Source: a virus
IMG/VR virus record: IMGVR_UViG_3300036766_000317
Location: 27,825 to 91,824 of that record
Direction: 5' to 3' (one strand)
DNA: 64,000 bases
A program made the position numbers and the translations under genes. The notes beneath the pieces were generated by a model. It was not told where the DNA came from. It saw nothing but the letters and a program-made list of their open reading frames with translations, and ran no database searches. Of this stretch, positions 1-28,107 are shown piece by piece; within the stretch, counting starts at the first letter, position 1, and the number at the start of each line of letters is the position of its first letter.

Positions 1-30
1 GTTCTTAATTCAAAAGAAAGGAGAAAGAAA

Positions 31-180
31 ATGAAAACCACCCGTACAGTGTATTTTTGTACAATTTGTAATACCCAACTTGATGTTTGTGGTTGGGGAA
101 ATCGTGCAGAATGTCCGGAATGTAACAAGATGGTTAATGTGAAATCAGTGGAAGTTCCGATTCTGAAAAAGGAGAACTGA
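31..180 (+). CDS. small zinc-ribbon protein (49 aa)
   Basis: Manually translated MKTTRTVYFCTICNTQ...ECPECNK; CxxC..CxxC; SD AAGGAG upstream. Confidence 0.7.
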   Translation: MKTTRTVYFCTICNTQLDVCGWGNRAECPECNKMVNVKSVEVPILKKEN

Positions 181-181
181 G

Positions 182-331
182 ATGCCAGTAGAAATCAAAA
201 TGATAGCCGGTGCTTTTCTTACTATCGGCATAACCGGAGCCGTGATCTGCATAGCTTCTCATGAATTTGTAGGAAGTTTGTGGTATATAGCTATTACCAT
301 CATTGCTGTTTGGGTTATCTTTAAAAAGTAA
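182..331 (+). CDS. small membrane protein (49 aa)
   Basis: MPVEIKMIAGAFLTIGITGAVICIA...; two hydrophobic segments; SD AAGGAG. Confidence 0.6.
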   Translation: MPVEIKMIAGAFLTIGITGAVICIASHEFVGSLWYIAITIIAVWVIFKK

Positions 332-344
332 AGGAGGAAAAATT

Positions 345-476
345 ATGGGTAAAGAAAAAGAAGTATGCTCTTGGTGCGGAAAAGAATTGCATGACAACGG
401 GGAAACCACATGGTGTGATTGTGGTTGGTGGGATGCTTTGCCCACAAGAGCCGAAGCCGAAGCCGAAACGAAGTAG
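345..476 (+). CDS. small zinc-ribbon protein (43 aa)
   Basis: MGKEKEVCSWCGKEL...WCDCGW; SD AAGGAGG. Confidence 0.7.
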   Translation: MGKEKEVCSWCGKELHDNGETTWCDCGWWDALPTRAEAEAETK

Positions 477-482
477 ACAATC

Positions 483-716
483 ATGAGGACACTGGAAATA
501 ATTCCAGTGTCCGAAGGGGCTGTCTACATCCCCAATTCAGAAGGGAAGGAAAGAGTTATGCAAATGTCCAATTTAGAATCAATCAAGATTCGTTGCCAAG
601 AACAAGGATTCTTTGCCCGAATACATCGGTTCAAGAAAGGCAAGAAGCGGATGTTTCGTAAGAAAGAACGGATAAATCGGCACATAACCAGGAAAGTTCT
701 TCATATTGAACAGTAG
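483..716 (+). CDS. hypothetical basic protein (start may be 558)
   Basis: ORF track; fits gene packing. Confidence 0.5.
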   Translation: MRTLEIIPVSEGAVYIPNSEGKERVMQMSNLESIKIRCQEQGFFARIHRFKKGKKRMFRKKERINRHITRKVLHIEQ

Positions 717-724
717 TTTGATGG

Positions 725-780
725 TAGCGGATTAGCCATGAGAAATCATGGCTTTTCCGCTGCAATTAAGCAGCGATTAA
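725..780 (+). ncRNA. two-hairpin intergenic motif, family B copy 1
   Basis: UAGCGGA-UU-AGCCAUGA(gaaa)UCAUGGCU-UU-UCCGCUG, overlapping second hairpin CGCUGC/GCAGCG, then AUUAA and SD. Confidence 0.7.
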
Positions 781-804
781 TTCCTTAAAGGAGGAAAGAA
801 GAGT

Positions 805-1434
805 ATGAGTAAAAAATCGAAGAAGGTTGCGGAGAAGAAGGCATTGACTCCGATTAAGAAGTTGACGCCGATTGCAAAGGCGGACGAGTCAATGAAAGCC
901 AAACAGACTGCGGCGATTGCGGAACTCAAGGCAAAATCGAAGGATGCTGCACCCATAGAGGCACCCGTCGTTGCAGCTCCTGTCCGTCCCGAAATGCCTG
1001 CTGACTTCTGTATGGAGAAAGCAGACTGGGACGGCGCTGGTGTGTGCTACGATGCAGGAAGTAATAACTGCGGAACGTGTACGAAGGATTTTCCTGAGAC
1101 CGTTGCCGTGTGCATCGAGCGCATGAAATTCCTCGGTGGTACTGTGAAAACGGCAAAGACGAAGAAAGCTGGAACAGCGAAGGCTCGGGTTGCCAAGAAT
1201 GGTGCGAAACCGCAATGCCTCGTCATTGATGATCTGTTGCGAGCATCAACGGCAATGGCAGACATGATCGCCTCGTTTGCTGCAATCGCATACGCTGGAG
1301 ATGCAAAAGCGGCAGAAGGTCGTATCAATCGGCACCTGAAATCCATTCGTGTCGGCGAGTACGTCAGATCGGCTGTAATGAAGGAATTCATTGCTTATCT
1401 GGCCGTTGCTGCGCCGGCAGCTCCCGCTGCTTAG
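805..1434 (+). CDS. Ala/Lys-rich protein with central Cys cluster, putative DNA binder
   Basis: ORF track; strong SD AAGGAGG; Lys/Ala-rich termini, C..CxxC. Confidence 0.75.
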   Translation: MSKKSKKVAEKKALTPIKKLTPIAKADESMKAKQTAAIAELKAKSKDAAPIEAPVVAAPVRPEMPADFCMEKADWDGAGVCYDAGSNNCGTCTKDFPETVAVCIERMKFLGGTVKTAKTKKAGTAKARVAKNGAKPQCLVIDDLLRASTAMADMIASFAAIAYAGDAKAAEGRINRHLKSIRVGEYVRSAVMKEFIAYLAVAAPAAPAA

Positions 1435-1442
1435 TGAGAAAT

Positions 1443-1506
1443 TGCAGAGGGCACGGGGTGAGAAAGTTTCATCCTGTGTAATGCACACTACCGTCCCAAG
1501 TCGGTG
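1443..1506 (+). ncRNA. twister ribozyme (permuted, P1 closed by loop), copy 1; predicted cut U1479/A1480
   Basis: UGCA-GAGGG-[CACGGGGUGAGA/UUUCAUCCUGUG]-UAA-UGCA..AC..[UACCG-UCCCAAGU-CGGUG]. Confidence 0.88.
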
Positions 1507-1530
1507 AGAAAATCTAAGAAAGGAGAGAGT

Positions 1531-1761
1531 ATGAAAAAGTATTTGGTAGAAGTCCGAAAGAAAGGTGAGAAATTCAGAGAACCTGGTGAACTGATTGAGA
1601 CAGTAAATACCATTCTCAAAGCGGAAGAAGTAGGAAATTTCAACCCGATCTTTTGCATCTACAAAGACAAACGTGTCATGGTAAGTTCTAAAGAAGGAGA
1701 TTTGAGTGATCCTTTTCGTCGGGAAACTTCATATCTGGAAAGTCTTTATATTGAAATCTAA
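1531..1761 (+). CDS. hypothetical protein
   Basis: ATG after AAGGAGAGAGT leader (start reassigned from 1504). Confidence 0.75.
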   Translation: MKKYLVEVRKKGEKFREPGELIETVNTILKAEEVGNFNPIFCIYKDKRVMVSSKEGDLSDPFRRETSYLESLYIEI

Positions 1762-1787
1762 CCACCAACCAAGAAAGGAGTATTGCA

Positions 1788-1955
1788 ATGAACAAACTTC
1801 AGAAATTGGTAGCACAATCGGTAATCGTCGTCCTGTACGGAAACCAGCTTCAAGATGAGAAGTTTGACCAAAGACAGTTACTTCTCGCCAAAGCAATGTA
1901 CGAGAAAGAAGTGGACAGACAGTTGAGAAAAGGGTTGGATCTTCGCAATATGTAG
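1788..1955 (+). CDS. hypothetical protein (55 aa)
   Basis: Manually translated MNKLQKLVAQSVIVVLYG...; SD AAGGAG. Confidence 0.7.
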   Translation: MNKLQKLVAQSVIVVLYGNQLQDEKFDQRQLLLAKAMYEKEVDRQLRKGLDLRNM

Positions 1956-1958
1956 TTT

Positions 1959-2010
1959 CAGCGTGGGAAGCAGAAATCTTCTGCTTCTCGCGGTGTACCT
2001 ACACCAATAA
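1959..2010 (+). ncRNA. family B motif copy 2
   Basis: CAGCGUGGGAAGCAGAA/UUCUGCUUCUCGCGGUG with G.G mismatch; hairpin GGUGU(accu)ACACC; AAUAA. Confidence 0.7.
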
Positions 2011-2029
2011 CTATGAGAAAGGAGAGAGT

Positions 2030-2398
2030 ATGGGAAATTCAATAAGATTGCACAAAGAGTTCGGTGTAAATCCGACAATCCTAAAATGCTTCCTCTGCGG
2101 AGAGGATAAAAATGAAATTGCTCTGTTGGGCGCTTCCTATAAAGGACAAGCCCCTATGCACATGTGCATAGACCAAACACCTTGTGACAAGTGTAAGGAA
2201 TACATGAAACAAGGTGTAATCCTAATCTCCGTGAGAGATGGGGAATCAGGAAGTGATCCTTATCGCACAGGGGGTTGGTGCGTTGTCAAAAGAGAAGCAA
2301 TGACCAACATCATTGATGATCCAAAATTGCTTGAGAAAGGAGCGATGTTTGTTCCTGATCCAGTATGGAAACAATTGGGTCTTCCAAAATTTGTATGA
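2030..2398 (+). CDS. hypothetical Cys-containing protein
   Basis: ORF track, CxxC...CxxC, strong SD. Confidence 0.75.
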   Translation: MGNSIRLHKEFGVNPTILKCFLCGEDKNEIALLGASYKGQAPMHMCIDQTPCDKCKEYMKQGVILISVRDGESGSDPYRTGGWCVVKREAMTNIIDDPKLLEKGAMFVPDPVWKQLGLPKFV

Positions 2399-2405
2399 TT
2401 AACCT

Positions 2406-2462
2406 CAGCTCAGACATGCCAAGAAATTGGTATGTCTGCTGGTGAGATCAATCACCAACTAA
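2406..2462 (+). ncRNA. family B motif copy 3
   Basis: CAGC-U-CAGACAUGCCAA(gaaa)UUGGUAUGUCUG-CU-GGUG; hairpin UGGUGA/UCACCA; ACUAA. Confidence 0.7.
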
Positions 2463-2485
2463 CTAAAGGAGGAAAGGAGAGTATT

Positions 2486-3253
2486 ATGACATCCAGCGTT
2501 CCAAAAGAAGAAATCATCTCGAAAATTATGAAGTTGCTGGCTCTGGGCAGTTCTGAAAAGAACGACAATCCTCATGAGCGGGAAACTGCTTCAAGGATGG
2601 CCGCAAAGCTCATGGCTGAGTGGAGCATCGACTTTGCAGAACTCAGAAGTTCCAAGCCATCAGAGGATGCTTTCGTCACTTATGAGGTGTCAGGTTCGGA
2701 AGACCGAAAAGTGGATTTTGAATCCTCCCTTGCTGGCAGTATTGCAAGGGCTTTCGATTGTAAGATCATCAACACCTGGACAAAATCATTGGATCATCGG
2801 TGGGTTATTGCTTTTGTCGGATCAAAGCATGATCTGGAAATCTCCGTCTATTTCTTCAAACATATTCGGAGAACGATGTATGCAATGTCCATTAAAAATG
2901 TGACCGTCGAAACAGTGAGGCCCAGAAACGGCAGACGAGCTGCCGGTACAGATGTAAATATGGCTCGGAGAAACTACTGCTTCGGTATGGTTGAGACGAT
3001 CAGCACCCGCATGGAAGACCTCTACAAAAAGCGGGAAGAGTTCATCCCGTCAGATTGCCGAGCCCTCGTCATTGTCAAGAAACAGGGATTGGAAAAATAT
3101 TTCAATCAGCAATATCCGAACAGAGTTTCTGGTAGAAGAACTTCTTTACGAGGAGATTTAACAGCATTCGGCAAGGGGCAGGAAGATGGAAAGCGTGTGA
3201 ACCTCAGTCGGCCCATTAGCAGTAATAATCAACAATCGGCCCAAATTGGATAA
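2486..3253 (+). CDS. DUF2786-domain protein
   Basis: N-terminal KIMKLLALG..NPHERETASRMAAKLMAEW typical of DUF2786; start reassigned after SD. Confidence 0.75.
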   Translation: MTSSVPKEEIISKIMKLLALGSSEKNDNPHERETASRMAAKLMAEWSIDFAELRSSKPSEDAFVTYEVSGSEDRKVDFESSLAGSIARAFDCKIINTWTKSLDHRWVIAFVGSKHDLEISVYFFKHIRRTMYAMSIKNVTVETVRPRNGRRAAGTDVNMARRNYCFGMVETISTRMEDLYKKREEFIPSDCRALVIVKKQGLEKYFNQQYPNRVSGRRTSLRGDLTAFGKGQEDGKRVNLSRPISSNNQQSAQIG

Positions 3254-3268
3254 AAGGAGGAAAGGAGC

Positions 3269-3412
3269 ATGAAGTCTTTCAACATTTATTTCAGGGACCT
3301 CAATGAAGATGCTCAAAAGAGGTTATTGGAACGGTTTGAAACAACTCCCGAAGAGGAAAATTGGGATACAGATGTGTTTCCAATAGCAATACTCGATCGG
3401 GAAGAGGAGTAA
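3269..3412 (+). CDS. small acidic protein (47 aa)
   Basis: MKSFNIYFRDLNEDAQKRLL...DREEE; SD AAGGAGGAAAGGAG. Confidence 0.75.
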   Translation: MKSFNIYFRDLNEDAQKRLLERFETTPEEENWDTDVFPIAILDREEE

Positions 3413-3414
3413 TT

Positions 3415-3510
3415 CCAGTTCGGAAATGGGAGCAATTCTGAGAGGTTGAGTGTTAAGCATTCGGTAGGAGTTGTTCCTGTTTCTTCTGGTGGAATTATCC
3501 ACCTTTACTA
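3415..3510 (+). ncRNA. family B motif copy 4 (expanded)
   Basis: 18-bp stem GGAAAUGGGAGCAAUUCU/GGAGUUGUUCCUGUUUCU with internal arm, basal CCAG/CUGG, then GGUGGA/UCCACC hairpin. Confidence 0.6.
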
Positions 3511-3529
3511 TAAGAAAAGGAGAAGAGAG

Positions 3530-3709
3530 ATGAAGAATGTTACTATGGAAACGAAAGGTCAGAATTTGGTTCTGACGGTCGATCTGTCAAAATCCTTTGG
3601 AGCCAGTGCTTCCGGGAAGACGATCATCATCGGAACGACTGAAGGCAATCAGCCCGTTGCCGGACATCCCGGTGTTAGTGTGGGGGTGAACGTCTACAAA
3701 AAGAAGTAG
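3530..3709 (+). CDS. conserved small hypothetical protein (SASGKTIIIGTTEGN type)
   Basis: MKNVTMETKGQNLVLTVDLSKSFGASASGKT...; resembles a widespread ~60 aa prokaryotic family; start reassigned. Confidence 0.8.
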   Translation: MKNVTMETKGQNLVLTVDLSKSFGASASGKTIIIGTTEGNQPVAGHPGVSVGVNVYKKK

Positions 3710-3765
3710 GCAGAGGGCTCCCGCTTCGGCGGGAGTAATGCACAATCTCGGTCCCAAGTCCGAGA
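3710..3765 (+). ncRNA. twister ribozyme copy 2; predicted cut U3736/A3737
   Basis: GCA-GAGGG-[CUCCCGC-UUCG-GCGGGAG]-UAA-UGC-AC-AA-[UCUCGG-UCCCAAGU-CCGAGA]. Confidence 0.9.
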
Positions 3766-3783
3766 AATTAGAAAGGAGAAAGT

Positions 3784-3987
3784 ATGGGATATGCAATGAT
3801 GGTAAGCGAATGTGGAGCATGTCACCAGATATTTTGCTACAATCCCCATCTGGTGCCCAGTCTAAACAATGTTCCTTTTTGTAAACGGTGTGTCGATGCT
3901 TCAGCACCTGAAAGAATCAAAAGGGGATTGGTTCCAATCAAATATTCAGAAGAAGCATACAAACCGATGGACGAATGTGAACTTTAA
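3784..3987 (+). CDS. small zinc-binding protein
   Basis: CGAC...CKRC; strong SD. Confidence 0.7.
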   Translation: MGYAMMVSECGACHQIFCYNPHLVPSLNNVPFCKRCVDASAPERIKRGLVPIKYSEEAYKPMDECEL

Positions 3988-4007
3988 ATTTGAAAGGAGA
4001 AATCTCT

Positions 4008-4133
4008 ATGAAACCGTTATACTGTACGCAAAACAAAGGCAAGTGCGAAACTTGCTCCCTTACCAACTATGGTCGGGATTGTCGGAATGTTCCGATAGCT
4101 ATAAATCGGAAAAAGGCAAAGCCTGAGAAGTAA
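4008..4133 (+). CDS. small Cys-rich protein (41 aa)
   Basis: MKPLYCTQNKGKCETCSLTNYGRDCRN; SD AAGGAG. Confidence 0.7.
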   Translation: MKPLYCTQNKGKCETCSLTNYGRDCRNVPIAINRKKAKPEK

Positions 4134-4138
4134 CTTTG

Positions 4139-4194
4139 GCAGAGGGCTCCGTCAGAACTGACGGAGTAATGCACAATTCCGGTCCCAAGTCCGG
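4139..4194 (+). ncRNA. twister ribozyme copy 3; predicted cut U4167/A4168
   Basis: GCA-GAGGG-[CUCCGUCA-gaac-UGACGGAG]-UAA-UGC-AC-AAUU-[CCGG-UCCCAAGU-CCGG]. Confidence 0.9.
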
Positions 4195-4227
4195 TTTGTA
4201 GCTAAAACAAAAGGAGGAAAGAGAGAT

Positions 4228-5139
4228 ATGAGTGAAACAATGGAAGGGTTGGCCTATGAGCTAACATCCGCAGAGCGGAAAGATGTTCGTGATCGTTATC
4301 CGAAGACCTACTTCCCAAGTCCGGTCTTAGAACCGGTGTGGGCAGGTCGTCGGGAACTCCGCAGAATTCCAGACAAGTTTGCCATTGTCGATCAATGTCG
4401 TCCAGGACCCTTAGACGCATCGAATCAGGTATTCGGGATCTGTTCGGATCAGTACAAAATCGTTCCCTTTGAAGACGTGGTGCATATGGTAGAAAATTCA
4501 GTCGGAAAATTGACTGAATACGGGAAGGTTCAAATCTGCCCGCACACCTATCTTGACGGAGCCAGATTAAACATTGGCATCAAATTTCCTGAGATGAAAC
4601 ATGAAATCAGGAAACTCGATTCCATTATTCCGAAAGTAGAGGTGTTTTCCTCTTATGACCTATCAACAAAGTTGATGGGTCGTTTCGGAGCATTCCAGCT
4701 TAAATGCCTGAATGGGGCGGGTATCTGGAAGTCCTTCAAGAGCTTTGCAAAAAGGCATCTCCAGAATCTGTTTCTGAATGAACTCGGAAACAACATCAGT
4801 GAAGGTATGGCTCTTTTCGGGGAACAGGTTGATTCGTGGAAAAAGTGGACTGAACTGAAGTTAGACCAGAAACTCTACGATACTGTTTGGGATGAACTCC
4901 CTTTCTCTGCTGCGGAACGTATCAAGATCGAAGCATTACCCGAAATCGGTACGAATCTTCAGTTGGGTCAAGCGATCAAAGGAAATTCCCTTGATCTTTG
5001 GAGCCTTTCATCGGTATTGACACAATTCGCTACCCATGGTGTCAAAAGCGAATTGCGCCGTATCGAACTGGAACCGGCAATCGCAAGAGTGATGGACCTC
5101 ACTTTCGACCGAGCCGCTGTTGCGGGACTCGTGCACTAA
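4228..5139 (+). CDS. DUF932/DUF945-like phage protein
   Basis: GICSDQYKIV, SYD, FQLKCLNG motifs typical of DUF932. Confidence 0.7.
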   Translation: MSETMEGLAYELTSAERKDVRDRYPKTYFPSPVLEPVWAGRRELRRIPDKFAIVDQCRPGPLDASNQVFGICSDQYKIVPFEDVVHMVENSVGKLTEYGKVQICPHTYLDGARLNIGIKFPEMKHEIRKLDSIIPKVEVFSSYDLSTKLMGRFGAFQLKCLNGAGIWKSFKSFAKRHLQNLFLNELGNNISEGMALFGEQVDSWKKWTELKLDQKLYDTVWDELPFSAAERIKIEALPEIGTNLQLGQAIKGNSLDLWSLSSVLTQFATHGVKSELRRIELEPAIARVMDLTFDRAAVAGLVH

Positions 5140-5172
5140 GAAACAACGAACTGAGCCAGAAAGGAGGTACTT

Positions 5173-5409
5173 GTGGAGAATGCTTCTATAAAAATGTTAA
5201 CCGTTGATGATTGTAATCTCCGAATGACTGAGCTAACAAAAGAGTTGGAAGAAGCAATTGAGAAATTGGGCCATTGTGAAGCTGTGGATTTGCTTGCGGC
5301 TAAGATTGCTGTTTGGGAAAGAGTCCGGCATCATTTGGTAAGAGGACAAATCATCACAATTGATGGGGAAGAAAAACTGAAGATGTGGGAAAACGTTTTA
5401 TCGGCATAA
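5173..5409 (+). CDS. hypothetical protein
   Basis: GTG start after AAGGAGG. Confidence 0.65.
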   Translation: MENASIKMLTVDDCNLRMTELTKELEEAIEKLGHCEAVDLLAAKIAVWERVRHHLVRGQIITIDGEEKLKMWENVLSA

Positions 5410-5411
5410 CC

Positions 5412-5474
5412 GCAGAGGGCGGACAGTCAGAAATTGGCTGTCCGTAATGCACTATCTGAGTCCCAAGTCTCAGA
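5412..5474 (+). ncRNA. twister ribozyme copy 4; predicted cut U5445/A5446
   Basis: GCA-GAGGG-[CGGACAGUCAG/UUGGCUGUCCG]-UAA-UGC-AC-UA-[UCUGAG-UCCCAAGU-CUCAGA]. Confidence 0.9.
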
Positions 5475-5497
5475 AATTCTATTAAAGGAGGAAAGGG

Positions 5498-5758
5498 ATG
5501 GAACCGATTCAAGACAATTTCTTCAAGAGGTTTCGGAAGAAGGTGGAAGGTATCTTCTACCGAACTCGCGGAAATAAAGGGACTGCCGATCTTGATCCGA
5601 TCATTCGGATCGGTCGTCACCATGGTGGGGGTGCTCGTCTTTCTGCTATTTCTTTTGGCGAAAAGAAAGCGTCTCCCACACTCCGAAAGTACCGACAGCA
5701 CAGAGATCGAGTAAACAAATTGGGAGCGATCTCCCGCAGGAAGAACCGCATTAATTAG
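5498..5758 (+). CDS. small basic protein
   Basis: ORF track; Arg/Lys rich; strong SD. Confidence 0.7.
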   Translation: MEPIQDNFFKRFRKKVEGIFYRTRGNKGTADLDPIIRIGRHHGGGARLSAISFGEKKASPTLRKYRQHRDRVNKLGAISRRKNRIN

Positions 5759-5817
5759 CAGAGGGCAGGGCCTATTGAGGCCCTGTAATGCTACATAGCC
5801 AGTCCCAAGTCTGGTTA
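5757..5817 (+). ncRNA. twister ribozyme copy 5; predicted cut U5786/A5787
   Basis: AGCA-GAGGG-[CAGGGCCU/AGGCCCUG]-UAA-UGCU-AC-A-[UAGCCAG-UCCCAAGU-CUGGUUA]; 4-bp P2 AGCA/UGCU. Confidence 0.92.
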
Positions 5818-5842
5818 AACTAAAGAGAAAGGAGAGAGTATT

Positions 5843-6106
5843 ATGATTACCAAAGAGGATGCTTTGAAGCTGAAATATCGGGATGAACTGCATTTCGGAG
5901 AATGTAGAAAGAAGGTCTCTCCCAGAGGCGGTGTAAAAATTACCAATACCATCGTCCGAGTAAACGGGAAAGTCAAAACGTGGAAACAGAATCTGAGTAG
6001 GTTTGAAGTTCCGATCAAACATGGACTATACGATCATAGTTATGTTGATGAGCGGAATGCTCATGATTTCCATCTCCCGAAAGACTGCCCGTTACTGAAG
6101 GAGTAA
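5843..6106 (+). CDS. hypothetical protein
   Basis: ORF track; RVNGKVKTWK motif; strong SD. Confidence 0.75.
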   Translation: MITKEDALKLKYRDELHFGECRKKVSPRGGVKITNTIVRVNGKVKTWKQNLSRFEVPIKHGLYDHSYVDERNAHDFHLPKDCPLLKE

Positions 6107-6110
6107 ATTT

Positions 6111-6344
6111 ATGCACCTACTTCATGAGACTACAGTCAAGAATACAGATGGAACTTATGAAATCACCGTCTACATCGTCGAAGATGGAAAACGAAGAGGT
6201 CCTTACACTTATCTGATTCCATCGGATAAAGAAGTCAGGGACTTCCTTGCTCTGTATCAAAAAGGAAAAAGAGATGGGTCAAGATTTCATGGGAAAGCCC
6301 TATCCCTTCTTAACAAACACCGAACCAGGTTAATCAGAAAATAG
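6111..6344 (+). CDS. hypothetical protein
   Basis: ORF track; SD AAGGAG. Confidence 0.7.
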   Translation: MHLLHETTVKNTDGTYEITVYIVEDGKRRGPYTYLIPSDKEVRDFLALYQKGKRDGSRFHGKALSLLNKHRTRLIRK

Positions 6345-6357
6345 GAGGAAAGAGAGC

Positions 6358-6639
6358 ATGAAAAAATCGCAGGTGGCATTGGCTAACATGATTCGTATAG
6401 CCAAAGCATACGGTAATACACATACGGTAGAGATGGAACAAGCTGAGAAAGCCCTTGCTGAACTTTTGACTGAAAAAGGTCATTCAGTAAGTGATTGGAA
6501 ATGTGTTCAATGTGATCAGGATCAGTGGGGGAAAGATGTAACCCTCTCGTCTGTCGCAGACGGAGGTGTTCCCATCTGTCCCTATTGCGAGAACGATATG
6601 ATCTTGGTTGAAGAAAGATGGGTGGAGGTGGAGCCATGA
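6358..6639 (+). CDS. zinc-ribbon protein
   Basis: CVQC...CPYC. Confidence 0.7.
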   Translation: MKKSQVALANMIRIAKAYGNTHTVEMEQAEKALAELLTEKGHSVSDWKCVQCDQDQWGKDVTLSSVADGGVPICPYCENDMILVEERWVEVEP

Positions 6640-6962
6640 AGAAGGAATACACCGATGTCAAACTCAAGATGACCCGTCGCAAGCTGATTGCCCTCGACAA
6701 AAAGGATATAGGGAAATGGACACATCAGGAATGTGTTGAGGCAGATCGGCTTATCCAAAACACAGCCATTCGGAATCTGAGGAAGAAATTATCCTTCTTC
6801 CAGGGAGGAACAGGAAGACTTGTTTCCAACTATGCCATACTGATGGCTCAGTTCCACTACGGATCGGCAGAAACAGACGACTTCCTTACAGCAATGGGCT
6901 GTTATGAGGATTGGATGTTCTCCGAGGAGCAGAACAAGAAACGGCATTCCAAAAAGTCTTAA
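6636..6962 (+). CDS. hypothetical protein
   Basis: ATGA overlap with upstream stop. Confidence 0.7.
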   Translation: MKKEYTDVKLKMTRRKLIALDKKDIGKWTHQECVEADRLIQNTAIRNLRKKLSFFQGGTGRLVSNYAILMAQFHYGSAETDDFLTAMGCYEDWMFSEEQNKKRHSKKS

Positions 6963-6965
6963 AGT

Positions 6966-7023
6966 CAGCAGATTGAGCGGGAACCATTTCCCGCTCTTTC
7001 TGGTGTTTTTAAGACACCAATAA
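6966..7023 (+). ncRNA. family B motif copy 5
   Basis: CAGCAGA-UU-GAGCGGGAA(ccau)UUCCCGCUC-UU-UCUGGUG; hairpin UGGUGUUU/AGACACCA; AUAA. Confidence 0.75.
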
Positions 7024-7043
7024 ACCAAAGGAGGAAAGAAAGT

Positions 7044-7526
7044 ATGAAGAAAACTTGTGATATTTGCAAGACCTATTGGAGAGTTCGGAATGAAAAGAAG
7101 ACCGAACATCCGTGCCATCCCTATCAGAACCCGATGGAAAAAGTCTGTCAGGATTTTGAGATGGAATGGACTCAAGAAGCCTGTCTAAGAAAATATCCGA
7201 GAGTGGTGGCCCATCTGATCTGTGCCAGTCTCGGCTATTTTACACCTCAATCAGCAGCAAATGCCATTTCGTTTTACAAACACGGAAAGGCGTTTTTCTG
7301 CGAGTGGTATTCCCATATGACCAAATATTCTCGGGATAACTACAAGGGTGACTATTTTGATGAAGTCATCTGTAAACGGGTTGGGGAAGAAACTCTGAGA
7401 TTGGCATTTGTAGGTCGTCATTCCCATCATGGCTATATGACCGAGATTAAGCAAGCCCGACATCTTGTGGCCGCAGAATTGAAAACTTCGGGAGCTACAT
7501 CGGGAATGCTTGCATCTTGGTTTTAG
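7044..7526 (+). CDS. hypothetical protein
   Basis: ORF track; strong SD. Confidence 0.75.
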   Translation: MKKTCDICKTYWRVRNEKKTEHPCHPYQNPMEKVCQDFEMEWTQEACLRKYPRVVAHLICASLGYFTPQSAANAISFYKHGKAFFCEWYSHMTKYSRDNYKGDYFDEVICKRVGEETLRLAFVGRHSHHGYMTEIKQARHLVAAELKTSGATSGMLASWF

Positions 7527-7534
7527 GCTGAATA

Positions 7535-7590
7535 TAGCGGGTTGGGCAGGAAGCGTCCTGCTCTTCCTGGTGCATTCAGTACCAAATAAA
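7535..7590 (+). ncRNA. family B motif copy 6
   Basis: UAGCGGG-UU-GGGCAGGA(agcg)UCCUGCUC-UU-CCUGGUG; hairpin UGGUGC/GUACCA; AAUAAA. Confidence 0.75.
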
Positions 7591-7607
7591 GAGAGAAAGG
7601 AGAGGGT

Positions 7608-7937
7608 ATGAAAACAGTAGATATTATGGAACGTCTGAAAATTCCAGAATGGAAGGCGAAGGTTGTCAATGTGCTTACCAAAGAACACGCCTCATCCCAT
7701 TCCGATGTTGACGACATCCTCGGAATTATTGAAACCCTTCTTGAAGGGTACGGGGTAGAACCACTCAGGGGAGATCATGTTGATAATTACTATATGGATA
7801 TCAACATCCTCTACATTAATTTGGGGGACACATACACACCCACCGTTCTGTATGATACACTCCTAAACAGATTCTTTATCTGTTCGTGGGGTGATTATAT
7901 TGAATCCAAACCGAAACGATTTCCGATGAATGCTTGA
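7608..7937 (+). CDS. hypothetical phage protein (YINLGDTYTPT motif)
   Basis: ORF track; strong SD. Confidence 0.75.
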   Translation: MKTVDIMERLKIPEWKAKVVNVLTKEHASSHSDVDDILGIIETLLEGYGVEPLRGDHVDNYYMDINILYINLGDTYTPTVLYDTLLNRFFICSWGDYIESKPKRFPMNA

Positions 7938-7940
7938 GAA

Positions 7941-7994
7941 TAGCAGATTGGACGGGAATTTCCCGTCCTTTCTGGTGTGCTTAAACACCAATAA
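7941..7994 (+). ncRNA. family B motif copy 7
   Basis: UAGCAGA-UU-GGACGGGA(auu)UCCCGUCC-UU-UCUGGUG; hairpin UGGUGU/ACACCA; AUAA. Confidence 0.75.
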
Positions 7995-8010
7995 AAAGAA
8001 AGGAGAGGGT

Positions 8011-8355
8011 ATGGACAGAAAAATGTCGAGTGATCTGGATAACTACATTACCGGACATTACGGGGAAGATCAGTTCAAAAGACCTCGGAAAAAAGATAAA
8101 AAGGGGAAGGAATCATTGGTCCATGAATTAGAACACCAGATGAAGAACCTTAACGTCAGTCAGATGTTGGAATTAGTCAAGAGATCGGGAAATACGGAAA
8201 AACGCAGATTCCGATTAAAAGGCCCTACGGGCAGTTTAGATGGAACTATCCATGATGCCGATTTCGGTATCTTGACTATTGACGAAGTACCAGAGTTCTT
8301 TCTGGCAAAAGATTTCTTGTTGGCCAATGACGTAGTTTGGGAACTCATTAACTAA
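8011..8355 (+). CDS. hypothetical protein
   Basis: Start reassigned to ATG after AAGGAGAGGGT. Confidence 0.7.
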   Translation: MDRKMSSDLDNYITGHYGEDQFKRPRKKDKKGKESLVHELEHQMKNLNVSQMLELVKRSGNTEKRRFRLKGPTGSLDGTIHDADFGILTIDEVPEFFLAKDFLLANDVVWELIN

Positions 8356-8374
8356 ACAGAGAAAGGAGATTAGC

Positions 8375-8596
8375 ATGGAAGAGCCAATCAAAATTCCAGA
8401 GAAGGACAAATTTGTCCGAAATTGTCCGGGTCCCAGATATAAAGTAATTTCAGGTCCTGGAGGGCATTACGTCTATGATTACAAGTCTCTGGACGTGGTG
8501 AGGAAAGACGGGAAATTCTTTATGGGCAAAGAACCGTCGGAAGCCAGAGAGTTCCTTCAATCTCTAAATGAAGAAGCTCCCCTTATAGAAAGGTAA
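8375..8596 (+). CDS. hypothetical protein
   Basis: ORF track; SD AAGGAG. Confidence 0.7.
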   Translation: MEEPIKIPEKDKFVRNCPGPRYKVISGPGGHYVYDYKSLDVVRKDGKFFMGKEPSEAREFLQSLNEEAPLIER

Positions 8597-8608
8597 GGAT
8601 GGTAATCT

Positions 8609-8746
8609 ATGAAATGTGACCACTGCAATATCGAATTGAAAAAACGCAAGACCCCTCCAAGAACCGCGACAATTGACGGGGGAAAGTATTATGACTATTT
8701 TCAATGCCCAAAATGCAAAACGAATTATGCCAAAGCCAAAAAGTAG
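8609..8746 (+). CDS. small zinc-ribbon protein (45 aa)
   Basis: MKCDHCNIEL...FQCPKCK; stop abuts twister copy 6. Confidence 0.7.
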   Translation: MKCDHCNIELKKRKTPPRTATIDGGKYYDYFQCPKCKTNYAKAKK

Positions 8747-8799
8747 CAGAGGACGCTGCTTCGGCAGCGTAATGCACAAATCCAGTCCCAAGTCTGGAT
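8746..8799 (+). ncRNA. twister ribozyme copy 6; predicted cut U8770/A8771
   Basis: GCA-GAGGA-[CGCUGC-UUCG-GCAGCG]-UAA-UGC-AC-AA-[AUCCAG-UCCCAAGU-CUGGAU]. Confidence 0.88.
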
Positions 8800-8824
8800 A
8801 AAATAAGAAAAGGAGGAAAGAGCT

Positions 8825-9052
8825 ATGCCAAAAAACGTAAGAAATTTCTGGATCGAAGCAGATGTCGATGGGGGAACTCCCATCGGAGCAGGCCCTAAAT
8901 CCAAAGATGGAGGATTTTCTCTGTCCATCTTCATGCGAGACAAAGGATTCGTCAAGAGGGTCGCCAACATCTCAGGAGTCGGGGGAAGTGAATTGAAATT
9001 ATCAATTCATACGGAAGATGGTAAATATTTACAGTATACTACACAAAGGTAA
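8825..9052 (+). CDS. hypothetical protein
   Basis: ORF track; strong SD. Confidence 0.75.
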   Translation: MPKNVRNFWIEADVDGGTPIGAGPKSKDGGFSLSIFMRDKGFVKRVANISGVGGSELKLSIHTEDGKYLQYTTQR

Positions 9053-9076
9053 CAGATGAAAAAGGAGGAAAGAGCT

Positions 9077-9280
9077 ATGCCAATCGAAACAGATTTCACC
9101 AATTTGCTCAAGCATATCGATGATGCTTCTGATGGATTGGAACAAAAGGTCGAATCGACGGAAGAGGAGTTGGACACTTTGAATACTCTCCTTACGAGAA
9201 AAAAAGAGCTTGTCGATAAAATCAACTCCCTCGCCGAAGAGATTGAGGACTTCCTCAACGACGCCAATTCCCTCATCTGA
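9077..9280 (+). CDS. small acidic coiled-coil protein
   Basis: Start after AAGGAGGAAAGAGCT; about 18 D/E vs 6 K/R in 67 aa. Confidence 0.75.
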   Translation: MPIETDFTNLLKHIDDASDGLEQKVESTEEELDTLNTLLTRKKELVDKINSLAEEIEDFLNDANSLI

Positions 9281-9281
9281 A

Positions 9282-9337
9282 TGCAGAGGACAGCCTCAAC
9301 AGAGGCTGTAATGGACATCTCGGTTCCAAGTCCGAGA
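9282..9337 (+). ncRNA. twister ribozyme copy 7 (variant, G.G mismatch in P2); predicted cut U9309/A9310
   Basis: UGCA-GAGGA-[CAGCCUC/GAGGCUG]-UAA-UGG-AC-A-[UCUCGG-UUCCAAGU-CCGAGA]. Confidence 0.75.
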
Positions 9338-9362
9338 AATAAATTAAAGGAGGGAAGAGAGT

Positions 9363-9596
9363 ATGCACAAAAGACCCACACCAAATCAAGAGAGGTCTTT
9401 CCGTCACTTCTTCGGAAAATCTACCAGTGTTTACTGGAATCCTTTATTTGGATTTGATATCGTTCAATTTGATGCCGACATGCAGTCCGAACAAGGATAC
9501 GTTGAGGATGGAAAAACAAGCCTTCGGGAATTTCTCGTCCAGAAATTCGGTCAAGAGGCTTCGGATCTAGTAAACTCTTTAATAGGAGGTGTTTAA
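9363..9596 (+). CDS. hypothetical protein
   Basis: ORF track; strong SD. Confidence 0.7.
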   Translation: MHKRPTPNQERSFRHFFGKSTSVYWNPLFGFDIVQFDADMQSEQGYVEDGKTSLREFLVQKFGQEASDLVNSLIGGV

Positions 9597-9871
9597 TGGA
9601 AAAGAAAACAGTTGTGATTTTCCGAAAGTTCCCGGAGGGGGATATTATAGCCATGTTCCCCGAAATTCAGGCGGATCAAAATCGTTGTGATTGTCTGAGC
9701 TATCAGCATATCGGCCAGCATGGTCCTGCTTCATATTTTCTGGTAGACCGAACGAAATTAGCTATTGCTGCTGAATATGCAGAGCTGAAAGCGGAGCTTG
9801 AATCAATCGGCTATGATCTGATAATCCGAAAACGGATCAACAAGCATTGGTATGAGGTAAAGGAGGGGTAA
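9596..9871 (+). CDS. hypothetical phage protein (SYQHIGQHG motif)
   Basis: ORF track; coupled start. Confidence 0.7.
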   Translation: MEKKTVVIFRKFPEGDIIAMFPEIQADQNRCDCLSYQHIGQHGPASYFLVDRTKLAIAAEYAELKAELESIGYDLIIRKRINKHWYEVKEG

Positions 9872-9873
9872 AT

Positions 9874-10068
9874 ATGCGTTCATGGAGGTGGTATATACAC
9901 TTTCCACAAGATGCGTATGCTTTAGGACCAATTCATTTTGAAAAGAGGGATTACACAAAGCCTCCTAATGAAAGGGATGTCCGACAGTATGCGAGAGAGT
10001 GGGAGGGTGTGAAACGATTGCCGACGGGGTTTTCTTGTTGGTCTGCTGAGTATTGGTCTGCTGAGTAA
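9874..10068 (+). CDS. hypothetical protein
   Basis: ORF track; SD AAGGAGG. Confidence 0.65.
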   Translation: MRSWRWYIHFPQDAYALGPIHFEKRDYTKPPNERDVRQYAREWEGVKRLPTGFSCWSAEYWSAE

Positions 10069-10078
10069 AGGAGGAAGT

Positions 10079-10246
10079 ATGAAACTGACTGAGTTTGAAT
10101 GGCATCTGAAAAAGATTGCCGAATCAACCTTGAAAATGCCTGATACTATGGTAAAGATCATAGGCGGGATGACAAAAGATGAGGCTAAAGAAATTCTGGG
10201 TAAATTAGGCAAAAAAGAATTGGAAGAGGATGTAGAAAAGATATAA
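10079..10246 (+). CDS. hypothetical protein (55 aa)
   Basis: MKLTEFEWHLKKIAE...GGMTKDEAKEIL; SD AAGGAGG. Confidence 0.7.
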   Translation: MKLTEFEWHLKKIAESTLKMPDTMVKIIGGMTKDEAKEILGKLGKKELEEDVEKI

Positions 10247-10263
10247 TCCACCTAAAATAGTGC

Positions 10264-10292
10264 TTGACATATCAATATGTTTTTGATATACT
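10264..10292 (+). promoter_or_regulatory. sigma70-type promoter at start of replication region
   Basis: TTGACA-17 bp-TATACT with TG extension. Confidence 0.8.
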
Positions 10293-10323
10293 AAAATCCA
10301 AGTAGAAAAAGGAGAAGGAGTGT

Positions 10324-10749
10324 ATGGAAATTCAAAGTTCCCTTTTTGAATCAACACAGCAGGAGGGGGGATTTGTGCCCTCTCGCAAAAGAATTGGGCC
10401 GAGACCTATGGTCTTAAAATCGATGGAGATTTTAACCAAAAATGTTCCCGATATCCCACATAAAGAGGAAGTTGATCGTCTTATGCAAGCAACAATCAAT
10501 CGTATGTACATCCCCAGATCCGAATATCTTGAGTATATAGAAGTTTCCAAACTTCTCATTACGGCTTCCGAAAAATTTCGGATGACTATTTCAAATGTGG
10601 TAGACGGGGCTTTAGAACTCATGAGAAAATTGCCGAATCTATATAGCAACCAAGCTATCTTCATGTCGTTGGAAGAGCCGATTTATGGATTTGCAATCAA
10701 GAAATCCATAGCAAATACAGTTGTAAGGAGAATGATATGCCGAAAATAA
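10324..10749 (+). CDS. hypothetical protein with N-terminal QSSLF clamp-binding-like motif
   Basis: ORF track; SD AAGGAG. Confidence 0.7.
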   Translation: MEIQSSLFESTQQEGGFVPSRKRIGPRPMVLKSMEILTKNVPDIPHKEEVDRLMQATINRMYIPRSEYLEYIEVSKLLITASEKFRMTISNVVDGALELMRKLPNLYSNQAIFMSLEEPIYGFAIKKSIANTVVRRMICRK

Positions 10750-10949
10750 CCAGATCAATGAAAGAAGATCCACCCAGAAAGAATCATCACTTGTTAATCA
10801 GACTGCCAATGCCTCTTTCTGAAAGAGTCGTACATCAGGCACAAAGGTTGTCCTGTTCCTTAAATATGTTTGCGCGCCTTGCTTTTGTCCGGCTTGTCGA
10901 GGAAGAAGAAGCCAAAGAAAGGGGAAATGCCGTAAGTTATCCGCAGTAA
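10737..10949 (+). CDS. ribbon-helix-helix (Arc/HicB-like) DNA-binding protein
   Basis: HLLIRLPMPLSERVVHQAQRLSCSLNMFARLAF. Confidence 0.6.
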   Translation: MPKITRSMKEDPPRKNHHLLIRLPMPLSERVVHQAQRLSCSLNMFARLAFVRLVEEEEAKERGNAVSYPQ

Positions 10950-10973
10950 TTCAATCCTAAAAGGAGGAAAATC

Positions 10974-11345
10974 ATGAGATGCGTTTATTGTAGTACCTTT
11001 TGTGAATCTCCATCCCGTGTTAGTGGTAATCATTTCTGTTTATATGCAAGAAAAATGGTGTCCGCAGATGATCCCATCTGTAATGAATTCAGTATCACAG
11101 GTACCTTCCAATGCAAACGGAGAGGCTGTCAATTAAGTGTTCCCATGTGTTCCGCAGCACAAACAAAGCCTTCACTTTGGTCAGAATGTACCCACTGTTC
11201 TCAGAAAAGAGAAATCTTAGAGATCAAACGCTTTGCCGGCATGAAGAAAAGAAACAACATTGGTCATATAGCGGATGCTCCTTTCCTTCCTCCTCCAGAA
11301 CAAATTCCCATTGTTCGTTCTAAGATTATTAGGAGGGCTTTATGA
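10974..11345 (+). CDS. Cys-rich metal-binding protein
   Basis: Multiple CxxC. Confidence 0.65.
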   Translation: MRCVYCSTFCESPSRVSGNHFCLYARKMVSADDPICNEFSITGTFQCKRRGCQLSVPMCSAAQTKPSLWSECTHCSQKREILEIKRFAGMKKRNNIGHIADAPFLPPPEQIPIVRSKIIRRAL

Positions 11346-11662
11346 AAGAAGAAACTGATGCTTTGGAAGCGGCGGCCATCGTGTATTTTGCAAATTGGTC
11401 AGACATCACAGAGATGGAGATTGAGTATCCAGAAACACCTGAATCTATCCTAATCAAAAAAGAAGTGATAAGCTCAATGCCATCTGAATGCCAAATAATG
11501 CTTAACATCATCTTTAATCTTCCCGAAGAGATGTTCCAGATCAGTGGTGGAAAAGTTAATCTCTACGGGGCCATGAAGATCGTGAAAAATATCACAGGGT
11601 GGCCTATGAAAAAAGTTCTCAAGACGGAAAACCTTCTTCGGGAACGATTGAGAAATTCGTAG
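11342..11662 (+). CDS. hypothetical protein
   Basis: ORF track; ATGA overlap. Confidence 0.65.
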   Translation: MKEETDALEAAAIVYFANWSDITEMEIEYPETPESILIKKEVISSMPSECQIMLNIIFNLPEEMFQISGGKVNLYGAMKIVKNITGWPMKKVLKTENLLRERLRNS

Positions 11663-11683
11663 GAAAACGTCAGAAATTTTGAT

Positions 11684-13207
11684 ATGCTGAAAGAAAAGAT
11701 GAGAAATTCTAAGGAGGGTGGGAAGTTGAGAGGCTTAATCAGAAAAACTGGACCGCATGCTGGAATTTCTGAGAAAGAAATCCAACAATCCCCACCCTCC
11801 GACTATGTTATCCAATATCTCGATCCAGTCGAAAGTTGGATGAATCAGAAACTTTATGATCTCGTCATAAAAGACCTTTCTTTTCCTGCTCAATACTATC
11901 GACAAGGCCCTTTCCATAAAATCAGAAAAGATTATGAGCGTAAGGATACAATCATTGCAAAAGCAAAAACTGGTGAATATATTTTCTACACAGGACTTAT
12001 TCCAAGAATACAAGAACTCTGCAAAGCTAAAGGTGTGGAATTAACCCTCTGTTCGGAGGAAGAAGAGCCTATTAAATTGAGTACGAAACCTATGCCTGAT
12101 AGTCTGAAACTTCGTCCGTTTCAAACAGACTTCATCAAACAAGCTATTCTCAAGAAAAGAGGGGTACTGATTGCTCCTACAGGAACTGGGAAAACCATAT
12201 TAGGAATAGGATTAATTGCATCATTATATGAACACTACAAAATTCTTTGGTTGTGCCATACTAAATCTTTAATGAGCCAATCGGCTAAAGAATTTGAGAA
12301 AGTATTTGGTAAAGGAAGTGTCGGCCTTGTTGGGGATTCCAACTTCGATGTGGGAAAATATGTTACTGTAGCCACTAGACAGACCTTCGTAAAGCACACA
12401 AAAGAATTGGCAAATGTATTTGACGCTGTGGTTGTCGATGAAGCACACCACATTTCTTCATTGGTTTATGCGAAAGAGAATGGGCTAATTAAATTAGGAC
12501 AATACTTCGATATATTAAAAGAATTGTATTGTCCTGTCAGAATAGGCTTGACAGCTACAAGGGCTGATAGTAAAGGAGCCCAATTAGCTATGGAAGCCTT
12601 GCTCGGTCCTGTTATCGGGGAATTTACGATCAATGAAGCACGAGAGCAGGGTTATATGGCACATCCGGTTATCAAATTAACGAAGTTATCCAAGAATATG
12701 GTTACCCACGACATGAGAAATTATGCAGATGTTTACGAGTCTGGGGTAGTCCGTAATCTAGAGATGAATCGGATCATTTCTGAATTAGTTAAAGGATATG
12801 CGGATGAAGGATTGACTTCTCTGGTAATCGTAACCCAGATCGTTCATGGAGAATTAATTCTTGGTATGGTGAAACGTCTCGGCGTAGGAGCCGTCTTTAT
12901 AAATGGTTCCACTGAAACAGAATCCAGAGAATTAACTAAACACGCCCTTAATGGCAAAATCCTGAAATGTGTTATTTGTACGGCTGTTTGGAAGGAAGGG
13001 GTCAACATCCCAGAGTTAAATGTGCTGATTAATGCAGCAGGGGGCAAATCTGAATTGGCGACGATTCAAGCGATCGGTAGGGGCATGAGGAAAACAGAGA
13101 CTAAATCTCATTTAGTTATCCATGACTTCTTCAACCCCAGTCACCGATTCTTGATAGATCATTTTGGATCTCGCCTGTGTTTGTATTTTGATTTAGGATG
13201 GATGTAA
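11684..13207 (+). CDS. superfamily 2 DExH helicase (UvsW-like); start may be TTG 11726
   Basis: LRPFQ, APTGTGKT, VVVDEAHH, GLTAT, EGVNIP, QAIGRGMR. Confidence 0.92.
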   Translation: MLKEKMRNSKEGGKLRGLIRKTGPHAGISEKEIQQSPPSDYVIQYLDPVESWMNQKLYDLVIKDLSFPAQYYRQGPFHKIRKDYERKDTIIAKAKTGEYIFYTGLIPRIQELCKAKGVELTLCSEEEEPIKLSTKPMPDSLKLRPFQTDFIKQAILKKRGVLIAPTGTGKTILGIGLIASLYEHYKILWLCHTKSLMSQSAKEFEKVFGKGSVGLVGDSNFDVGKYVTVATRQTFVKHTKELANVFDAVVVDEAHHISSLVYAKENGLIKLGQYFDILKELYCPVRIGLTATRADSKGAQLAMEALLGPVIGEFTINEAREQGYMAHPVIKLTKLSKNMVTHDMRNYADVYESGVVRNLEMNRIISELVKGYADEGLTSLVIVTQIVHGELILGMVKRLGVGAVFINGSTETESRELTKHALNGKILKCVICTAVWKEGVNIPELNVLINAAGGKSELATIQAIGRGMRKTETKSHLVIHDFFNPSHRFLIDHFGSRLCLYFDLGWM

Positions 13208-27045: not shown

Positions 27046-28107
27046 ATGGAAGGTATGAAAATAAAAAGAATAGAACTCCGTGACATCTTAGCAAAGCTGA
27101 TTCCGGGATTAGCTAAGAGGGAATTTATTCCTGCATTGACCCACTTTATGTTCTTGTCGGAAGAGATCGTAACCTACAATGACAAAGTGGCCATCATACA
27201 TCCATTTGAAAATACGGAACATCCATTCAGCATTAAAGGAATGGAATTCTTCCGTATCATAGATGGTATGACTGATGACGAAATAACCATTCTTGTAGAA
27301 GAGGCCAAGATCAAGATACGTTCAAAAAGTACATCTGCAACGATGAAAATTCTAGGGGAGAATTTGAATAAACTCCCCGAATCAATTGCAGAGTTGAAGA
27401 AAGGACAGAAGGGATGGAAAGAGTTACCAGAAGATTTCTTAGAAGGTATTTCTCTATGCTCTTTTTCTACTTCCCCCGATCTGTCTAAGGGAATCATGGC
27501 TTGTGTATGGATCATCGGGGATACCTGCTATTCATTAGACCATGCTCGGTCAAGCCGTTTCAAGATGTCTTCCGAGATGCCAGATATTTTATACCTTATA
27601 GGCAAAGAATGCTCCGAGCTGGTAAAATTTCCAGTAACTGAATACTGTACAGATAAAAAGTGGGCTCATTTTCGTACAGAGGACGGAGTTGTTTTCAGTT
27701 GTATGCCCATGAAAGGATCATATCCTTTAGAGAAAGTGAATGCCGCTTATGACACAGCCTTACACAGTTCTATGGTACAATTGCCAAAAGAACTGAAATC
27801 TATTGTGGACAGTGTTGTTGTCTTAGCTGGATTGCTTGAGAACAATGTTGGCAGATGGATTGAATTGACTTTGCAGGACGGAGAAATCTTTGTGAAAGCA
27901 ACGAGTGAGTTGGGAGAAGTGGAAAAGACCATCCCTTGTAAATATGATGCTGATCCTATTTCATTACGACTGAATGTGAAGTTCCTCAGTCAGATTCTGG
28001 ATAAAGCTACTTCTCTGTCTAAGAATGAGGGAATGGTTCATTTTAAGAGCGGGCCGTTCCAACATATTATGGCACAGACAAGTAAACCTTCTACGGAGAC
28101 AAAATAG
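27046..28107 (+). CDS. DNA sliding clamp (DnaN/beta-like)
   Basis: About 350 aa, MKIKRIELRDILAKL, GSYP, LNVKFLSQIL; adjacent to polymerase. Confidence 0.72.
   Translation: MEGMKIKRIELRDILAKLIPGLAKREFIPALTHFMFLSEEIVTYNDKVAIIHPFENTEHPFSIKGMEFFRIIDGMTDDEITILVEEAKIKIRSKSTSATMKILGENLNKLPESIAELKKGQKGWKELPEDFLEGISLCSFSTSPDLSKGIMACVWIIGDTCYSLDHARSSRFKMSSEMPDILYLIGKECSELVKFPVTEYCTDKKWAHFRTEDGVVFSCMPMKGSYPLEKVNAAYDTALHSSMVQLPKELKSIVDSVVVLAGLLENNVGRWIELTLQDGEIFVKATSELGEVEKTIPCKYDADPISLRLNVKFLSQILDKATSLSKNEGMVHFKSGPFQHIMAQTSKPSTETK

Follow-up and report, generated by a model that had tools for sequence, protein, structure and literature searches.

The DNA analysed here is a viral stretch of 64,000 nucleotides (nt), positions 27,825 to 91,824 of IMG/VR record IMGVR_UViG_3300036766_000317, and this whole stretch is called the window below. 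Seven small elements that match the type-P5 twister self-cleaving ribozyme (Rfam RF02684, Twister-P5, clan CL00120; a class of Roth et al. 2014, per PMC5408937) sit in the window at junctions between small phage genes. Each element takes up the space that separates the stop codon of a small open reading frame (ORF) from the leader of the next gene, which is composed of an A-rich linker, a Shine-Dalgarno sequence and an ATG. The 3' layout is the same in all seven copies, with the start codon 18–33 nt past the end of helix P4. Four of the seven (copies 2–5) lie within the segment 3710–5817 (Table 1).

The elements were identified by a scan with the Rfam covariance models, which gave exactly seven RF02684 matches above the gathering score in the 64-kb window, all on the + strand. 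Every match covered positions 1–58 of the 58-position model, with scores of 41.7–64.4 bits against a gathering score of 37.6 and E values from 2.7e-5 to 4.2e-11. Since the same family search returned no match in 14 control genomes, chance was excluded as the source of the seven matches. No further copy was found in the 91.8-kb IMG/VR record using RF02684 at E ≤ 0.001 or our own covariance model (described below) at E ≤ 1. A permissive Rfam scan (E ≤ 1) found no other ribozyme family in the window; an archaeal sR30 match (E = 0.083) was taken as chance. Megablast of window positions 1–12000 against GenBank phages gave no match. With a probability of about 0.8, we consider the seven elements to be ordinary members of RF02684, situated between small phage genes that form one block and run in the same direction.

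Table 1. The seven twister copies and one example of a 3' flank. All coordinates are those of the window; "Stop to P2" is the distance from the last base of the upstream stop codon to the first paired base of P2.
Feature	Extent	Strand	RF02684 match	Score (bits)	P1	P4	Predicted cleavage	Stop to P2 (nt)	Remarks
Twister copy 1	1443–1506	+	1443–1505	45.3	1452–1478	1489–1493/1502–1506	U1479^A1480	9	Outside 3710–5817
Twister copy 2	3709–3765	+	3709–3763	55.9	3718–3735	3746–3751/3760–3765 (6 bp)	U3736^A3737	0	P2 3710–3712/3739–3741; L4 3752–3759; model position 1 is the G of the upstream TAG stop (3707–3709)
Twister copy 3	4138–4194	+	4138–4194	59.1	4147–4166	4179–4182/4191–4194 (4 bp)	U4167^A4168	5	L2 ACAAUU
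Twister copy 4	5411–5474	+	5411–5472	42.9	5420–5444 (11 bp)	5455–5460/5469–5474 (6 bp)	U5445^A5446	2	
Twister copy 5	5756–5817	+	5757–5814	64.4	5766–5785	5796–5802/5811–5817 (7 bp)	U5786^A5787	-1	Upstream TAG stop (5756–5758) falls within a P2 able to reach 5 bp
Twister copy 6	8745–8799	+	8745–8797	48.7			U8770^A8771	-1	TAG stop 8744–8746 overlaps P2; outside 3710–5817
Twister copy 7	9282–9337	+	9282–9335	41.7			U9309^A9310	2	Weakest copy; outside 3710–5817
3' flank of copy 2	3766–3786	+							A-rich linker, Shine-Dalgarno AAAGGAG, ATG at 3784

From 5' to 3', each copy consists of the P2 5' strand (GCA), the T1 strand GAGGG or GAGGA, the P1 hairpin, the U^AA site, the P2 3' strand (UGC), loop L2, and finally P4, its loop L4 and the returning P4 strand. 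The last three bases of GAGGG/GAGGA form T1 and the AC of L2 forms T2, while the U^AA was assigned as the cleavage site from the class description in PMC5408937. P1 is 6–12 base pairs (bp) long, P4 is 4–7 bp and usually 6 bp, L2 has 3–6 nt, and the L4 loop reads UCCCAAGU or UUCCAAGU. From P2 to the end of P4 the copies span 54–64 nt. Both P1 and P4 are closed by loops, and the chain ends fall between the P4 3' strand and the P2 strand, which is the P5 position. Four copies have three Watson-Crick pairs in P2, copy 1 has four and copy 5 up to five; copy 7 has two together with a G.G mismatch, and its T1 carries a compensated GGA/UUCC change. In copy 6, the T1 strand GGA faces UCCC, which has not changed, so that either one A.C mismatch or a slipped pair results.

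Relatives were collected by a degenerate pattern scan of IMG/VR, which yielded 87 viral stretches. Because MAFFT placed the two long-P1 copies wrongly when aligning all seven, our own covariance model was built from five window copies and the rest were aligned with Infernal; T1 and T2 were not included in this model. Applied to the window and the 87 loci, it gave 263 matches at E ≤ 0.01, with up to 14 copies per contig. The covariation and flank tests used 110–128 non-redundant type-P5 twisters from those 87 stretches. Across the seven copies and 128 homologs, little or no variation is seen in GCAGAGG, the U^AA cleavage site or the L4 motif UYCCAAG.

In the 128 distinct sequences, standard pairs occupied 98.6% of the cells, compared with 68.5% in shuffles and 27–42% in slid controls, and two-sided changes occurred in 19 of 21 pairs, affecting P1, P2, P4, T1 and T2. 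P1, P2 and P4, each taken separately, were paired in 98–99.5% of cells (two-sided changes in 15 of 16 pairs). T1 was paired in 99.0% and T2 in 99.2% of cells; the third T1 pair was GC in 93 and AU in 32 homologs, and the first T2 pair was AU in 104, GC in 18 and GU in 5. Since neither T1 nor T2 had been included in the model, their covariation is independent of it. RNAalifold, run on an independently made MAFFT alignment that comprised the seven copies and one sequence from each contig (58 in all), also recovered P2, P1 and a 6-bp P4. The core is therefore under strong structural selection. On the same 58-sequence alignment, RNAalifold added a pair to P1 between the third base of T1 (G or A) and the invariant U of the cleavage site (GU 38, AU 20; columns 27 and 56), in competition with T1. 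This extension is probably an artefact of pseudoknot-free folding; it could also be an alternative inactive conformer.

The RF02684 consensus structure in the cmscan output contains P2 (4 bp), P1 (8 bp) and P4 (3 bp) only, with no helix outside P2 or between P2 and P4. The window copies share with it the strand order, the conserved L1 and L4 nucleotides, P1, P2, P4, T1 and T2, and the model likewise lacks P3 and P5. Their differences from the Rfam consensus are minor. P2 has three pairs rather than four in five to six of the seven copies and in 108 of the 128 viral homologs (84%), reflecting the loss of model position 36. As its first pair, T2 has A-U here and G-C in the consensus, and P4 is 6 bp in most copies against the 3 bp annotated by Rfam, the added pairs being backed by covariation; part of the "GA" in the GAAAU that recurs 3' of the element is accounted for by this longer P4. 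There seem to be two sub-forms among the 128 viral homologs: a minority in GC-rich contigs with a 4-bp P2 (C1-G36) and a G-C first T2 pair, and a majority, including the window copies, without position 36 and with an A-U first T2 pair.

The initial annotation of this DNA had described the elements as having the order P2, P1 hairpin, P2', P4 without P3, and the Rfam alignment and the anatomy of the copies agree with that description. No P3 helix exists in any of the seven copies, because only 3–6 nt lie between P2 and P4, two of them engaged in T2, which leaves no room for it. The same annotation had reported no evident P5. A covarying P5 in the homolog flanks, named there as the observation that would refute this, was sought, and a P5 stem built from the termini was detected neither in the copies nor in the homologs by four flank tests: cognate against non-cognate flanks, flank column pairs, an RNAalifold consensus and positional controls, the last given further below. 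The predicted duplex between the 20-nt 5' flank and the 20-nt 3' flank had a mean of -4.86 kcal/mol for cognate pairs and -4.87 kcal/mol for non-cognate pairs (n = 110, p = 0.64). In six window copies the duplexes formed by their own flanks were weak (-1.3 to -6.9 kcal/mol). Cognate flanks did not have longer helices next to the junction than non-cognate flanks (n = 110, p = 0.33). Among 225 column pairs (15 upstream by 15 downstream, n = 128), the largest excess-pairing z was 2.64, as expected by chance from 225 tests. In the RNAalifold consensus of the 58 sequences with 18-nt flanks, every flank column was unpaired. Moreover, coding sequence continues through the 5' flank as far as the element itself, which accounts for the lack of a 5' strand for P5. 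Rather than being a special minimal variant, the compact form with P2, P1, P4, T1 and T2, in which an L2 of 3–6 nt takes the position of P3 and the ends are free where P5 would be, is how the family normally looks in phage contigs.

This form is also not new. The initial annotation had suggested that standard models may miss it and implied that it was novel. RF02684 finds all seven copies at full length above the gathering score, and it also recovered 90 of 107 own-model copies in 12 related multi-copy loci; the curated family is itself P2-P1-P2'-P4 without P3 or P5, and in the twister review P1, P2 and P4 count as essential, with P0, P3 and P5 being optional (PMC5408937). The elements represent a known family in a known kind of context rather than a new ribozyme form, and annotation pipelines based on Rfam already detect it. 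Of the 17 copies that RF02684 missed in the 12 loci, 11 were in contig L020 (IMGVR_UViG_3300010376_000403), whose twisters are 85–91 nt long with long P1 insertions. RF02684 at the gathering score finds 3 of its 14 own-model matches, and this contig is the only place where standard models may miss twisters.

Among twisters, the name of the type-P5 class implies termini in a P5 stem, whereas neither the present copies nor the homologs show a detectable one; since the Rfam model contains no P5, a P5 stem is not a criterion of RF02684 membership. Unlike the twisters that bear P3 (type P3, env22/env9), the present elements have no P3 between P2 and P4. P3 and P5 are also missing from the minimal type-P1 twister Osa-1-4 of Oryza sativa (crystal structure, Liu et al. 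2014; PMC5408937), which shows that P1, P2, P4, T1 and T2 are enough for the fold. However, the chain of Osa-1-4 is open at P1, so that nearly all of the ribozyme stays with the 3' product on cleavage, while the chain here is open at the P5 position and the predicted cleavage would split the fold into one product with the P1 hairpin and another with the P4 hairpin.

Similar settings have been described elsewhere. Bacterial hammerhead and twister ribozymes cluster together and near phage genes, and processing of polycistronic mRNA into pieces of different stability or translation has been proposed for them (work of Weinberg and Breaker, summarised in PMC10085705 and PMC6765202). In contrast to such clusters, the arrays in the window and in the 12 related loci are homogeneous: all 90 of the 90 Rfam matches in those loci were Twister-P5, with no hammerhead, pistol, hatchet or twister-sister. 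In RNA viruses of fungi and plants, self-cleaving ribozymes lie in untranslated and intergenic regions and a role in translation initiation has been shown (PMC13725137). The likeness to the present case is a ribozyme in the intergenic spacer just 5' of the next ORF, where cleavage makes a 5' end for translation; the difference is that those are eukaryotic RNA viruses with mostly hammerheads and cap-independent translation, while this is a DNA phage with genes led by Shine-Dalgarno sequences (PMC13725137).

The genes adjoining the twisters are mostly small orphans, together with genes for DUF2786/DUF7168 and DUF932-like proteins. Promoter-like sites over 1–11 kb showed no excess (19 versus 17.3 expected); from 502 to 10220, no + strand site scored above 9/12. 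The promoter scan and the layout fit one polycistronic unit for the twister-bearing block. The best sigma-70-like site of the first 11 kb (10264–10292, +; TTGACA, 17 nt, TATACT with a TG extension, 11/12) follows immediately after the block and may be where the next transcription unit begins. At the junction that precedes the DUF932-like gene, all four contigs compared carry a twister: the window (copy 3), L040, L063 and L024; these four twisters have no stem sequence in common, and pairing is kept in all of them. At other orthologous junctions their presence varies (L063:4400–9500, L040:4000–7400 and L024:5500–8900 versus window 800–5500). In L063, twisters flank the DUF2786/DUF7168 gene on both sides and directly follow the DUF932-like gene, where the window has short plain spacers.

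A second recurring element was noted in twister-free spacers of the same operon (1962–2010, 3470–3510, 6975–7020, 7540–7585, 7950–7995 and possibly 718–790). It is made up of a GC-rich hairpin, a pyrimidine run (CUUUCU or UCUUCC) and a hairpin GGUG(N)...CACC, followed by AAUAA before the Shine-Dalgarno sequence, and Rfam models did not match it at E ≤ 1. Like the twisters, it lies between stop codon and Shine-Dalgarno sequence, so it may be an alternative processing or termination signal.

In the IMG/VR scan the type-P5 twister pattern was frequent in viral contigs. Among 185,579 prokaryotic species (one genome each), it was found at 10 loci, all in metagenome-assembled genomes (MAGs), and one MAG contig has eight copies within 3 kb. 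RF02684 gave no match in 150 other genomes sampled from one Clostridia-type class.

Other explanations were weighed against family membership of this ordinary kind. A real P5 might have been missed if the flanks pair, perhaps distally or with the Shine-Dalgarno region, closing the junction or masking the ribosome-binding site until cleavage. Minimum free energy (MFE) folds with 30-nt flanks do contain 7–10 pairs between the two flanks in copies 4, 5 and 7. For copies 5 and 7, these are upstream runs of CUCC type paired with the downstream Shine-Dalgarno sequence, and the flank duplex of copy 7 reaches -12.0 kcal/mol through such distal pairing. However, this pairing is at chance level: the 35 nt adjacent to the element gave -9.85 kcal/mol against the 40-nt 3' flank, while windows 60, 120 and 180 nt further upstream gave -10.5 to -10.7 kcal/mol. 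The distal P5-like, anti-Shine-Dalgarno helix in the MFE folds of copies 5 and 7 was therefore ruled out, as positional controls pair equally well. Together with the equality of cognate and non-cognate flanks, the lack of a covarying column pair or an RNAalifold flank helix, and the coding sequence reaching up to the element, these results already largely refute a missed P5, which we regard as extremely unlikely. A role at the DNA level is also very improbable. The repeats would then be shared junctions at which phages swap small gene cassettes by recombination, with ribozyme activity secondary or vestigial. The presence or absence of twisters at orthologous junctions, as in L063, and the mostly orphan character of the adjoining genes agree with this, but all catalytic nucleotides are retained, and the invariant blocks shared between copies are at most about 10 nt long. 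Furthermore, the P1 and P4 stems are wholly different between copies and between orthologous junctions with pairing kept, which indicates selection on RNA structure, and such selection destroys DNA homology.

A further possibility concerns the upstream stop codons. The initial annotation had noted that these abut or overlap P2 in copies 2, 5 and 6; this was borne out, copies 4 and 7 come within 2 nt as well, and the layout is family-wide. If the position of the stop were a selected design, a terminating ribosome would cover P2, the T1 strand and the start of P1, and would either prevent the ribozyme from folding until the ribosome is released or pull the 3' product off RNA that has already been cleaved, so that translation of the upstream gene would time cleavage or release. 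In line with this, among the 113 homologs whose upstream ORF is clear, 76 have a stop that overlaps model position 1 or lies within 1 nt of it, 35 of these with the two-base overlap TAG|CAGAGG, and five of the seven window stops are no more than 2 nt from P2. A rough stop-to-stop ORF call also gave TAA 49%, TAG 44% and TGA 6% at 79 homolog junctions with twisters, versus TAA 35%, TAG 20% and TGA 45% elsewhere on the same strands. The TAG excess arises because the stop overlaps the AG at the element start, and the TGA deficit may reflect contig composition. However, copies 1 and 3 and about a third of the homologs have gaps of 2–38 nt, and twister-free junctions in the same operon are equally tight (3–33 nt from stop to start), so genome compaction suffices for the layout, which is accounted for by a self-contained module inserted into a compact genome. 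We therefore consider gating by the ribosome unlikely. The wider proposal, in which phage type-P5 twisters form a distinct compact subclass (3-bp P2, A-U T2 pair, 6-bp P4, never P5) with a functional open junction and stop-abutting edge, the fold being split so that each product keeps a capping hairpin and a terminating ribosome gating folding or stripping the product, which would couple mRNA processing to translation, is likewise rather doubtful.

As ordinary type-P5 twisters, the elements would act as follows. Each would fold alone and cut the polycistronic early transcript between the U and A of GUAAUGC. The upstream cistron would retain its stop codon, and its 3' end, formed by the P1 hairpin and bearing a 2',3'-cyclic phosphate, would lie 24–45 nt past that codon. 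The RNA downstream of the cut would begin with a 5'-OH and about 9–12 free nt, followed by the P4 hairpin, the A-rich linker, the Shine-Dalgarno sequence and the start codon, the latter 47–60 nt from the predicted cut. Since only the 3-bp P2 and the 3-bp T1, about six pairs, would still bridge the two halves after cleavage, they should part readily, and easy product release is a structurally reasonable expectation from the modelled fold. Neighbouring cistrons would thereby gain independent stability and translation.

Several points weigh against this picture. P2 of copy 7 is defective and T1 of copy 6 is mismatched, so that, judged from their sequences, both ribozymes may be slower; equal activity of all copies is not required by the reading. 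A look-up of RNA sequencing runs for window positions 1400–9400 listed none containing this DNA. The homologs are viral contigs selected by a pattern and may not represent the bacterial type-P5 examples behind the class name. The 5'-OH end of the glmS ribozyme product is said, in 2007 work by Collins and co-workers, to mark it for RNase J1 in Bacillus, and by analogy the downstream fragment could be destabilised rather than protected. In addition, a review relays the suggestion that an altered P2 length may harm the active site (PMC5408937), and P2 here is 3 bp rather than 4 bp. How common and how well conserved the 3-bp form is argues that such a P2 works.

It has already been proposed that twisters and hammerheads of bacteria and phages process polycistronic transcripts, and the biological role of bacterial and phage twisters is still undefined (PMC6765202). 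The window adds a clean seven-copy example, and the roughly 120 phage homologs sharpen what is testable. The natural unit appears to be a self-contained module of roughly 55–65 nt that would need no flanking helices and is set exactly between the stop codon and the next Shine-Dalgarno leader. With a module of this kind, minimal constructs would be easy to design, and coupling to translation would be directly testable.

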